A stretch of 64,000 nt of DNA from a virus. Taxonomy: Duplodnaviria; Heunggongvirae; Uroviricota; Caudoviricetes. Every line of letters begins with the position of its first letter. Position 1 is the first letter of the stretch. Position numbers and translations under genes: made by a program. Positions 19,273-51,649 of this stretch are shown one piece after another. Below the pieces are notes generated by a model. That model saw only the letters and a program-made list of their open reading frames with translations, searched no databases and was not told the DNA's origin. The DNA is taken from the IMG/VR virus record IMGVR_UViG_3300021475_000005; one strand, written 5' to 3'.

Positions 19273-19350
19273 TGGACTCGCTACCGAGGCTCGAACTCGG
19301 ATCGTGAAGACTTCGGAGGTCAACGTTCTATCCATTTGAACTATAGCGAG
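19273..19350 (-). tRNA. tRNA-Arg(CCG)
   Basis: Cloverleaf, anticodon loop CUCCGAA, encoded CCA. Confidence 0.85.
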
Positions 19351-19354
19351 AAGG

Positions 19355-19429
19355 TGGCAGTCCCAGACGGATTCGAACCGCCGACCATTCGTTTAGAAGA
19401 CGAAGGCTCTTCCGCTGAGCTATGGGACT
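19355..19429 (-). tRNA. tRNA-Arg(UCU)
   Basis: Loop CUUCUAA, CCA. Confidence 0.92.
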
Positions 19430-19441
19430 ATGCACATTAAG

Positions 19442-19530
19442 TGGCACTGACGGCGAGATTCGAACTCGCAATGTGGTTTCCCACTCCAGATTCGTAGTCT
19501 GGTGCCTTGATCCAGTTAGACTACGTCAGT
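19442..19530 (-). tRNA. tRNA-Arg(ACG) with long variable arm
   Basis: Loop CUACGAA; V-arm GUGG-GAAA-CCAC; CCA. Confidence 0.88.
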
Positions 19531-19567
19531 GTATTATGTATACGGATAATCCGTACACTGATTAAAA

Positions 19568-19644
19568 TGGCTCCTGTTGCAAGGCTCGAACTTGCCGCGA
19601 TCTGATTAACAGTCAGATGTCCACACCCGGTGCACTTAACAGGA
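19568..19644 (-). tRNA. tRNA-Asn(GUU)
   Basis: Loop CUGUUAA, CCA. Confidence 0.9.
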
Positions 19645-19675
19645 ATAGTGAGATGACATATCTCACAGATTGATT

Positions 19676-19750
19676 TGGATCAAGGAGTAGGATTCGAACC
19701 CACGTTGCCGACGTTCAATGCGTCGTGTCCTACCGCTAGACGATCCTTGA
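19676..19750 (-). tRNA. tRNA-Gln(UUG), A33 variant
   Basis: Loop CAUUGAA, CCA. Confidence 0.85.
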
Positions 19751-19755
19751 AAATT

Positions 19756-19831
19756 TGGCTCACCCTCTTCGATTCGAACGAAGAGCCTCCAGATTCAGAG
19801 TCTGTTGCGCTACCAGTTGCGCCAAGGGTGA
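19756..19831 (-). tRNA. tRNA-Gln(CUG)
   Basis: Loop CUCUGAA, CCA. Confidence 0.9.
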
Positions 19832-19832
19832 A

Positions 19833-19907
19833 TGGTAGTTCCTCGGAGAATCGAACTCCGCTAAATCTCCGTGTAAAGGAGGCGACCAGCCACTGGCCCA
19901 AGGAACT
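19833..19907 (-). tRNA. tRNA-Val(UAC)
   Basis: Loop UUUACAC, CCA. Confidence 0.88.
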
Positions 19908-19941
19908 AAACTTTTTTACTCCTTTCGAGTAAACGTTGATT

Positions 19942-20016
19942 TGGTTGTCCCTGATGGAGTTGAACCATCTACCTAACGGTTATCAGCCGTTTGCTCTACC
20001 GATGAGCTAAGAGACA
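19942..20016 (-). tRNA. tRNA-Ile(GAU)
   Basis: Loop CUGAUAA, CCA. Confidence 0.92.
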
Positions 20017-20021
20017 TCATT

Positions 20022-20096
20022 TGGTTGGCCTACCGAGAATCGAACTCGGGCATAAACGCTCATCAGGCGCTTGCTGTACCACTTAGCTATAGGCCG
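20022..20096 (-). tRNA. tRNA-Ile(GAU), second copy, G37 variant
   Basis: Loop CUGAUGA, CCA. Confidence 0.85.
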
Positions 20097-20101
20097 AAAT
20101 T

Positions 20102-20176
20102 TGGTATCTCTTACTGGAATCGAACCAGTTCATCACGGCATGTCATACCGGTGCTCTCCCACTGAGCTAAAGAGAT
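20102..20176 (-). tRNA. tRNA-Val(GAC)
   Basis: Loop AUGACAU, CCA. Confidence 0.85.
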
Positions 20177-20177
20177 A

Positions 20178-20252
20178 TGGTCGATCTGGATGGTCTCGCA
20201 CCACCGACACGAAGATTTTCAGTCTCCTGCTCTACTCCTGAGCTACAGATCG
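20178..20252 (-). tRNA. tRNA-Phe(GAA)
   Basis: Loop CUGAAAA, T-loop UGCGAGA, CCA. Confidence 0.88.
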
Positions 20253-20345
20253 ATATTCGTTACTTCTCATCTCCATAATTCGCCGTTTCTGGCGAGTTAA
20301 CGTCTGTTTCGTTTGTAACTCGTCGTCTTTGACGAGTTCTGCTTT

Positions 20346-20431
20346 TGGTGGGAGTGGAAGGAATTGCACCTACTCACCCGTGGGGACTGATTTTACAGAC
20401 CAGCGCCGCTCTCTAACTCGACCGCACTCCC
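20346..20431 (-). tRNA. tRNA-Tyr(GUA)
   Basis: Loop CUGUAAA, long V-arm, CCA. Confidence 0.88.
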
Positions 20432-20444
20432 ATGGTCCAAATGC

Positions 20445-20483
20445 AAAAAGGCCCGCTCGGTGTTTACCGGGCGGGCCTTTCGG
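20445..20483 (-). terminator. Attenuator terminator ahead of the Tyr-to-Arg tRNA operon
   Basis: AAAGGCCCGCCCGGU-AAAC-ACCGAGCGGGCC-UUUUU; its 5' arm is also complementary to leader-ORF nt 20542-20527. Confidence 0.85.
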
Positions 20484-20503
20484 AACCTTGAGAGCGACTG
20501 GGT

Positions 20504-20593
20504 TTACCAGATATCCTGCTCACGCGCCGAAGACCCGCCCGGAATATACCGGACGAAGTTGACTTGCTGCACGCGGTTGAATCTCTTGCTCAT
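20504..20593 (-). CDS. Leader peptide A (MSKRFNRVQQVNFVRYIPGGSSAREQDIW), putative tRNA-operon attenuator
   Basis: ATG is 6 nt after the -10 box (leaderless-type); codons 4-17 match the downstream tRNA set. Confidence 0.8.
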   Translation of the reverse strand: MSKRFNRVQQVNFVRYIPGGSSAREQDIW

Positions 20594-20599
20594 GATGTT

Positions 20600-20628
20600 T
20601 GTGTACCTGATTCGATTTTGAATGTCAA
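20600..20628 (-). promoter_or_regulatory. Sigma70-type promoter of leader A / tRNA operon
   Basis: TTGACA-17 nt-TACACA. Confidence 0.8.
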
Positions 20629-21500: not shown

Positions 21501-21576
21501 TGGAACTGCGTGTCCGATTTGCACGGACCTCCTCCGCCTTCACAGGGCGGCGACTCGCTTGCTAGTCCTACGCAGC
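21501..21576 (-). tRNA. tRNA-His(GUG)
   Basis: Loop CUGUGAA; G1:U72; no encoded G-1. Confidence 0.85.
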
Positions 21577-21584
21577 ATTTAATT

Positions 21585-21668
21585 TGGTCGCTCTACCAGA
21601 ACTTGCATCTGGAATCCCGAAGGACAACGTTCTCAACGTTGCGCGTCTACTAGTTTCGCCATAGAGCG
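21585..21668 (-). tRNA. tRNA-Leu(GAG)
   Basis: Loop UUGAGAA, V-arm, CCA. Confidence 0.87.
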
Positions 21669-22191: not shown

Positions 22192-22267
22192 TGGTTCCGC
22201 TTATCTGACTTGCACAGATCATCTCTCGTTTACGAGACGAGCGCATCGCTACCAATGCTTAAGCGGA
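22192..22267 (-). tRNA. tRNA-Thr(CGU)
   Basis: Loop CUCGUAA, CCA. Confidence 0.87.
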
Positions 22268-22272
22268 TCAAC

Positions 22273-22347
22273 TGGTGCCTCTTGAACGACCTGCCCGTTC
22301 CTCTCACCCCTACCAAAGGTGCTCATCGCTTTCTATGATTAAAAGGC
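22273..22347 (-). tRNA. tRNA-Thr(GGU), degenerate T-loop
   Basis: Loop UUGGUAG, CCA. Confidence 0.78.
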
Positions 22348-22348
22348 G

Positions 22349-22424
22349 TGGTGCCGATAGACAGGATCGAACTGCCTCCCTGACTGATTACAAAACAGTT
22401 GCGCTCCACTAGCGCCATATCGGC
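22349..22424 (-). tRNA. tRNA-Thr(UGU)
   Basis: Loop UUUGUAA, CCA. Confidence 0.88.
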
Positions 22425-22513
22425 AAAAAACAATTGCATGATTCGGGTAGTCTCGCCTTCTTCGCGTCCCGATAGTTTCAGCCATCACCGGCTTACGGAG
22501 ATCATGCACAAAA

Positions 22514-51147: not shown

Positions 51148-51540
51148 CTACCAAAACAAAATTTTTGCAGGTTTCTGCTTTTTGTATTTCCGGCGATCCT
51201 CAGCCGTCTTCTTCTTATGACATTTAACGCATAATAGCCGGACATTCGTCGGTTCCCAAAACTCTGGATCGCCATAGGCTATAAAGAGCGGAAGGATGTG
51301 GTCAGCTTCCCAATCGTCAGTCAGATAAAAATGAGTTTTTCCACATTCATGACAGATACCGAAGTCACGGAAGAAAACATACTGCCGCATCCGTTGCGGA
51401 TCGGCACGAAGCAGGTAATGTGTCCTGCAAACGTTGCTACAAAACTTCGCTTTATCCTTTGTTTTGAGTCCACACCAGCGACACATGCCGAGAGGCGCTT
51501 TGTGGAAGCGGCCCGGATAAGCGCGATGCGCGGCCATCAA
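51148..51540 (-). CDS. HNH endonuclease
   Basis: CHECG...WEADHILP...NVRLLCVKCHKKKT. Confidence 0.85.
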   Translation of the reverse strand: MMAAHRAYPGRFHKAPLGMCRWCGLKTKDKAKFCSNVCRTHYLLRADPQRMRQYVFFRDFGICHECGKTHFYLTDDWEADHILPLFIAYGDPEFWEPTNVRLLCVKCHKKKTAEDRRKYKKQKPAKILFW

Positions 51541-51649
51541 TCATCTTCGCCGTCATAACCGTGATATGGAGGTTCTTCCATACTATTTCCGAGGACAAAG
51601 AGAAACCAAGCTGCTGCAATGAAGAGCATCGTTCCGAGCGCTACGAAAA

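Follow-up and report, generated by a model that had tools for sequence, protein, structure and literature searches.

A predicted ribosome-controlled attenuator that reads the codons of its own tRNA operon in a phiCbK-like phage

The tRNA operon and its leader

We analysed a 64,000-nucleotide (nt) stretch (hereafter the window) of a 156-kb linear virus record from IMG/VR (IMGVR_UViG_3300021475_000005; CheckV completeness 59%) and focused on the leader that precedes a transfer RNA (tRNA) operon on its minus strand. The head-tail adaptor encoded in this genome is 52–56% identical to the adaptors of Brevundimonas phage Bajun and Caulobacter phage phiCbK, and the order of tRNA blocks, PhoH, adaptor, and tail genes is common to all three phages. 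Because of the adaptor identity and the common gene order, we assign the window phage to the Dolichocephalovirinae-like siphophages related to phiCbK; its host may be an alphaproteobacterium. The tRNA genes of the window are sorted into blocks whose amino-acid sets do not overlap. The block studied here comprises 12 genes (Tyr-GUA, Phe-GAA, Val-GAC, two Ile-GAU, Val-UAC, Gln-CUG, Gln-UUG, Asn-GUU, Arg-ACG, Arg-UCU, and Arg-CCG) with 11 distinct anticodons for seven amino acids (Arg, Phe, Asn, Val, Gln, Tyr, and Ile; hereafter the set).

We compared 16 leaders: that of the window phage, those of eight cultured phages fetched through adaptor protein synteny and not through a motif (phiCbK, Bajun, Colossus, PW, SC, Rogue, Gurke, and Marchewka), and seven added by a motif scan (Karma, BL10, BL9, and four uncultured contigs, with L035 the closest). 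All eight synteny-fetched Dolichocephalovirinae have the promoter, a 31–32-codon open reading frame (ORF), the same helices, and a U tract directly before a Tyr/Phe/Val/Ile/Gln/Asn/Arg block. Across the 16 leaders, the ORF has 29–32 codons, its start and stop are conserved, and it lies between promoter and operon. The leader is unannotated in every relative; the phiCbK record (NC_019405) marks the orthologous terminator alone, at 51465-51502. The phiCbK ORF has 32 codons, and its ATG is at 51341.

Table 1. Coordinates of the leader elements and of the tRNA operon in the window
Feature	Position	Strand	Remarks
-35 box	20623..20628	-	TTGACA; TTGACN here in 16/16 leaders
-10 box	20600..20605	-	weak sigma-70 match, last T absent; 17 nt after -35 box
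Leader ORF, 29 codons	20504..20593	-	ATG 20593, stop 20506-20504; ATG 6 nt after -10 box
Sensor codons 4-17	20543..20584	-	all Arg/Phe/Asn/Val/Gln/Tyr/Ile
Segment 1, protector 5' strand	20549..20576	-	core 20555-20549 pairs with 20542-20536; extension pairs with 20535-20519
Segment 2, antiterminator 5' strand and protector 3' strand	20527..20542	-	
Segment 3, antiterminator 3' strand and terminator 5' arm	20467..20483	-	
Segment 4, terminator 3' arm	20450..20460	-	
U5 tract	20445..20449	-	expected RNA 3' end about 20445-20441
12-gene tRNA operon	19273..20431	-	Tyr-GUA first (20431), Arg-CCG last (19273)

The -35 and -10 boxes form a putative promoter, in which the position of the -10 box is conserved among the leaders and its sequence is variable; a simple promoter and terminator scan listed neither this promoter nor the leader terminator. 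The ATG follows the -10 box by 5–8 nt in 16/16 leaders and is preceded by a Shine-Dalgarno sequence neither in the window leader nor in any of the 16, and the ORF is therefore probably leaderless, with its ATG at the likely transcription start. Leaderless mRNAs are common in Caulobacter (375 mRNAs), and leader attenuation functions there (PMC4117421). The predicted terminator stem (20477-20467/20460-20450) has one mismatch, continues into U5, and lies 13 nt before tRNA-Tyr.

Beyond the 16 leaders, an exact DNA search of IMG/VR with the leader start, a tblastn search of phages with the 29-residue leader peptide, and a PhoH-based locus search gave no match, and blastn with the operon matched tRNAs only. 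A metagenome pattern scan returned mostly chance matches and one true relative, identical to L035. Rhodobacter phage RcXuper, which has a different tRNA order, does not match the leader motif, and none of 80 genome-scan matches was a bacterial tRNA array with this motif, which is narrow and so gives no proof of absence.

Sensor codons and their conservation

Codons 4-17 of the leader read exactly as listed in an earlier note made from the letters of the window alone, and they do cover all 11 downstream anticodons, as that note had claimed, with four of them matched by wobble only: CGC by Arg-ACG (which requires inosine), GTG by Val-UAC, TAT by Tyr-GUA, and ATT by Ile-GAU. The rough chance estimate of about 3e-7 for such a run is reproduced as p^14 with an in-set residue fraction of 0.339. 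The set accounts for 33.9% of the residues in the long ORFs of this phage, where the longest in-set run is 9 (34,858 codons in 121 ORFs). The six frames of the 156-kb record hold one further 14-codon in-set run, without a preceding start codon or promoter; the run alone is thus rare and not unique, and the case rests on position and conservation. Given 14 in-set codons, the probability of covering all 11 anticodon classes is 0.1–0.4%, and given the amino-acid sequence, it is 3–6%.

From the first in-set run to segment 2, 205 of the 206 codons in the 16 leaders belong to the set. Along a spanning tree, 34/35 amino-acid replacements stay within it, compared with 23% of random non-synonymous single changes. 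In the leader tails the in-set share is 27%, and the same DNA read in its other five frames gives 2–7 in-set codons of 13–14. Insertions and deletions in the sensor are whole codons, and the frame of segment 2 in the window phage and L035 differs from that in the remaining 14 leaders. These patterns suggest that the front of the leader is constrained as codons and the tail as RNA, not as peptide.

The constraint could also be read as that of a functional product, either an arrest peptide or a small protein rich in beta-prone residues, with the hairpin as a plain terminator. The conserved length of 29–32 residues and an Arg-Ala-Gly after the sensor in many relatives, which resembles SecM-like arrest motifs, would fit such a product. 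Residue identity varies freely within the set, however, the changed tail frame in the window lineage has removed Arg-Ala-Gly, and the peptide has no Pfam or NCBIfam match. With a plain terminator 13 nt ahead of the first tRNA, the operon would moreover be silenced, and the covarying helix between segments 2 and 3 (see below) would stay unexplained, which makes this explanation very improbable.

The idea of the earlier note that the leader samples every anticodon of its operon holds in the window phage and L035 and fails in Karma, BL10, and the uncultured contig L047, which carry Arg-UCU and have no AGA or AGG in the leader; L047 additionally has Arg-CCU. Four leaders show six of the seven amino acids before segment 2. 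Judged from these sequences, and with anticodon lists of the relatives that are approximate because ARAGORN miscalls some phage tRNAs (Asn as Ile-AAT), the conserved feature is an amino-acid panel with several isoacceptors and not full anticodon coverage.

The GTG at codon 8 (20572) is invariant in all leaders. The tRNA at position 19907-19833 is Val-CAC in most relatives and Val-UAC in the window phage and L035; AGA occurs only in the leaders of the latter two. Positions 21540-21625 and 22231-22505 of the fetched phiCbK region (L003) contain apparent tRNAs, identified from anticodon loops judged by eye, for Tyr-GUA, Asn-GUU, Arg-ACG, and Arg-CCG, which the phiCbK annotation and PMC3556154 give as absent, and a gene annotated as Gly-UCC at 22510 occupies the place of Karma's Arg-UCU.

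Codons that match downstream anticodons would also be expected if tRNAs paired directly with the RNA, without a ribosome, in the manner of a T-box. Rfam returned no T-box match, and a T-box stem I with specifier loop and the T-box bulge motif are absent from the window. The start codon, open frame, and stop are conserved, and a separate specifier loop for every one of 14 adjoining in-frame codons is impossible, which leaves direct sensing with almost no probability.

A second leader in the window (22927-22814, minus strand; 37 codons) precedes its own tRNA block (Pro/Thr/Lys/Leu/His/Ala/Ser). In a label swap, 30/31 of its residues came from the set of its own operon and 1/31 from the Arg/Phe/Asn/Val/Gln/Tyr/Ile set. 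This second ORF is not leaderless, since about 45 nt separate its ATG from the -10 box.

Competing RNA helices and covariation

The pairing of 20542-20527 with 20483-20467, proposed earlier as a 16-base-pair antiterminator (2:3), comprises 16 pairs, one of them G-U, and a single bulged A, at -31.9 kcal/mol. Among 3000 random 110-nt genome stretches, the best pairing with segment 3 reached -27.2 kcal/mol (median -13.8). All 16 leaders can form an antiterminator of 15–17 base pairs, with 2:3 duplex energies of -27 to -35.5 kcal/mol. The earlier note overlooked a further hairpin, the protector (1:2; 20576-20549 with 20542-20519), in which sensor codons pair with segment 2; in the folding model, it forms in 16/16 leaders before segment 3 is transcribed. 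Since this conserved hairpin adds 1:2 to 2:3 and 3:4, the leader has the predicted architecture of a full four-segment attenuator.

In an alignment of 15 sequences, pairing reaches 89.7% in the antiterminator core, with five pairs changed on both sides (slid controls reach at most 57%), and 97.9% in the terminator (3:4), with three such pairs (slid controls far lower). The protector is 89.9% paired, with two such pairs. These pair counts are inflated by shared ancestry, and we place the weight on two-sided changes in the synteny-found phages. In SC, all four segments have changed in concert; in L035, a distal C-G pair of the antiterminator has become U-A.

Folding of both conformers indicates that 1:2 plus 3:4 and 2:3 are mutually exclusive and compete in silico. 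The naked full-length RNA adopts 1:2 plus 3:4 with a probability of 0.91–1.0 in the window phage and of at least 0.98 in 14/16 leaders, with SC at 0.22 and BL9 at 0.87. In the window phage, this fold lies just 2 kcal/mol below the antiterminated form. When the RNA ends just before segment 4, 2:3 is favoured in 16/16 leaders.

We modelled a ribosome walking along the leader with an assumed footprint of 9 nt past the A-site codon (range 6–12 nt). The protector has disappeared by about codon 11, and codons 15–17 are where 2:3 is lost in 13/13 modelled leaders. For the window phage, the terminator probability is about 0.5 with the ribosome stalled at codons 5–8, near 0 at codons 11–14, and above 0.9 from codon 15. 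A stall in the sensor would thus free segment 2 and a run-through would cover it, with the last two to three sensor codons on the wrong side: switching is best for stalls at codons 10–14, partial at 4–9, and poor at 16–17, the sole Tyr and Ile codons of the window leader. This agrees with the caution in the earlier note that stalls at codons 15–17 may partly cover segment 2. Its prediction of constitutive read-through after an ATG knock-out is probably wrong; because the untranslated leader folds the protector plus the terminator, such a mutant would likely terminate, and blocked leader translation gives super-attenuation in classical four-segment attenuators (PMC1183508).

An alternative is that the leader is a translation-coupled switch for general translation stress or timing (an elongation block, an antibiotic, or a ribosome-targeting defence), with an incidental or secondary codon match. 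Any stall in codons 4–15 would give the same folding outcome, the Tyr and Ile codons of the window stand where sensing is predicted to be weak, and full anticodon coverage is not conserved. Under such a switch, there would nevertheless be no cause for 34 of 35 replacements to stay inside the set of the operon or for the second leader to match a different set, that of its own operon, and we consider it improbable.

Proposed mechanism

The conservation, the in-set replacements, the covariation, and the folding support the core of the earlier reading, ribosome-controlled antitermination of the tRNA operon. We propose that the leader very probably acts by ribosome-mediated transcription attenuation, sensing the supply of charged tRNAs for the operon's own codons in a negative feedback. 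Host RNA polymerase would initiate at or beside the ATG, and a 70S ribosome would load onto the leaderless RNA. With fast decoding of the Arg, Phe, Asn, Val, Gln, Tyr, and Ile codons, the ribosome would cover segment 2, allowing the 3:4 terminator to form and the RNA to end at about 20443, before tRNA-Tyr. Under a shortage of charged tRNA (depleted, cleaved, uncharged, or overdrawn), the ribosome would lag in codons 4–15 and melt the protector, leaving segment 2 free to form 2:3 ahead of the synthesis of segment 4; transcription would then continue through the 12 tRNAs, which would relieve the stall. Untranslated RNA, including read-through from the upstream tRNA block, would fold into 1:2 plus 3:4 and stop.

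Several observations weigh against this proposal. The -10 box of the leader promoter is weak, the 16 leaders are all of a single origin, the sensor codons also pair in the protector, which makes their conservation partly structural, and the invariant core pairs in the motif-found loci are conserved by construction. In L035, Colossus, and PW, the full-length equilibrium favours the terminator at every ribosome position, and read-through in these phages therefore requires kinetic trapping of 2:3. Finally, one contig assembled from RNA sequencing (RNA-seq) of infected cells spans leader and tRNAs unbroken.

The Karma/phiCbK region occurs in four RNA-seq runs of 2023 that are probably those of the infection series in PMC10688885. 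In two contig sets from infected cells, only the presence of leader and tRNAs on one piece is seen; two raw-read runs are from uninfected cells, with matches to host tRNAs only. With the search terms used, the supplement of PMC10688885 gave no rows for tRNAs or the leader. Contigs that span the junction would suit a role of the structures in precursor processing or stability, as a translation-gated RNase site and not in termination, as would a U tract of merely U5 followed by GCAU. A GC-rich hairpin with a U tract is, however, conserved in the 16 leaders, mostly with further U after it, and mutually exclusive 2:3 and 3:4 helices are a textbook terminator switch; we regard a processing role as very unlikely.

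An attenuator as proposed here cannot distinguish tRNA destruction from overdraw or amino-acid starvation. Host anticodon nucleases may be a plausible trigger, because tRNAs encoded by phages can restore infection in the face of retron-Eco7 and PrrC (PMC11555353). It is about an even bet that phiCbK-like phages have a modular, demand-driven tRNA supply, in which operons sorted by amino acid each stand behind their own codon panel, so that the phage would gauge the tRNAs missing from the infected cell, for instance following an anticodon-nuclease defence, and replace that group alone. If so, phage tRNA arrays would be an inducible counter-defence and a homeostatic circuit and not a constitutive supplement. 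Whether phages carry tRNAs to supplement codon usage or to stand in for host tRNAs that have been destroyed is a long-standing question. If an attenuator reads the codons served by its operon, these tRNAs would be produced on demand, and the leader would be a built-in reporter of those that run short during infection. Attenuation would then reach beyond protein-coding operons to tRNA genes, and to a panel of seven amino acids. phiCbK and Caulobacter allow direct testing, and an infection RNA-seq time course exists (GSE241057, PMC10688885).

Comparison with known attenuators

The leader has the sequence-level features of an attenuator, namely a leader ORF, cognate regulatory codons, an intrinsic terminator, an exclusive antiterminator, a protector, and the stall geometry. 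All described ribosome-mediated attenuators regulate amino-acid biosynthesis or synthetase proteins, whereas this one precedes 12 tRNA genes. Because its targets are tRNA genes, we class it from its sequence as an attenuator variant that is a member of no named leader family. No Rfam leader family scored above threshold; the sub-threshold hits (Thr_leader, E 2.9; RcsR1, E 1.1; two miRNAs) were not used. We found no published attenuator of a tRNA operon in the literature searched, which largely lacked subscription journals, and attenuation is absent from the phiCbK genome paper.

With the ilvGMEDA, thr, and ilvBN leaders of E. coli and the Caulobacter ilv leader, it shares the short ORF, the regulatory codons, the 1:2, 2:3, and 3:4 helices, the intrinsic terminator, and the predicted super-attenuation (PMC1183508; PMC4117421). 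Unlike these, it is phage-borne, gates tRNA genes and not enzymes, so that the regulated product is the sensed molecule, and combines seven amino acids in one 14-codon panel almost without tandem repeats. Aminoacyl-tRNA synthetase genes can also stand behind an attenuator, as in E. coli pheM-pheST. Together with this leader and that of Caulobacter trpS, which has a leader coding sequence (PMC4117421), the phage leader would feed its translation back on a component of the decoding machinery, whereas the synthetase leaders sense one amino acid each and act on the synthetase instead of the tRNA.

Leaderless short-ORF attenuators, such as the mycobacterial polycysteine leaders (bioRxiv 10.1101/834739) and the poly-His leaders of Gemmatimonadota, likewise have their start codon at the transcription start and sensor codons directly after it, but they sense a single amino acid and have protein-coding targets. 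The helix motif used here also retrieves leaderless poly-His leaders before hisG in Gemmatimonadota genomes (L149, L208, L213, L228, L248, and L250). T-box riboswitches resemble the phage leader in that tRNA status sets a terminator/antiterminator switch and differ in binding one uncharged tRNA directly, without translation. Phage tRNAs also act as counter-defence, with tRNA-Tyr of T5 and SP15 against retron-Eco7 and tRNA-Lys against PrrC, and such systems make host tRNA cleavage a plausible trigger for the phage leader; there, in contrast, rescue is tied to a strong promoter, and a term search of that paper found no conditional codon-sensing control (PMC11555353).

Other elements near the operon

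The stretch from the Ser tRNAs to the leader promoter (21340-20630, minus strand) contains no hairpin-plus-U terminator. Read-through from the upstream tRNA block would reach the leader untranslated and stop at the leader terminator, which may double as the end of that block. Just upstream of the leader promoter lies a strongly folded non-coding stretch (20890-20685, minus strand; -99 kcal/mol), whose counterpart at the same place in phiCbK (21035-21290 of L003) is structured and has its own TTGACA; Rfam gave no match. A 22-nt stretch at 20677-20656 is repeated exactly at genome position 51539-51560.

Directly after the last Arg tRNA (19271-19090, minus strand), a TTGACA promoter is followed by a long hairpin with a U tract and a second terminator-like hairpin. 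A similar layout is seen in phiCbK and Colossus, and the element is probably a small RNA.

A third promoter-proximal ORF (25221-25114, minus strand; 35 codons) precedes Glu/Glu/Asp tRNAs and has a Glu-Arg-Glu/Arg-Asp motif near its end. The relatives (in L003 at about 18080) have a leaderless version of 20–21 codons, in which Glu-Arg-Glu and Arg-Asp are conserved and behind which a short hairpin lies.
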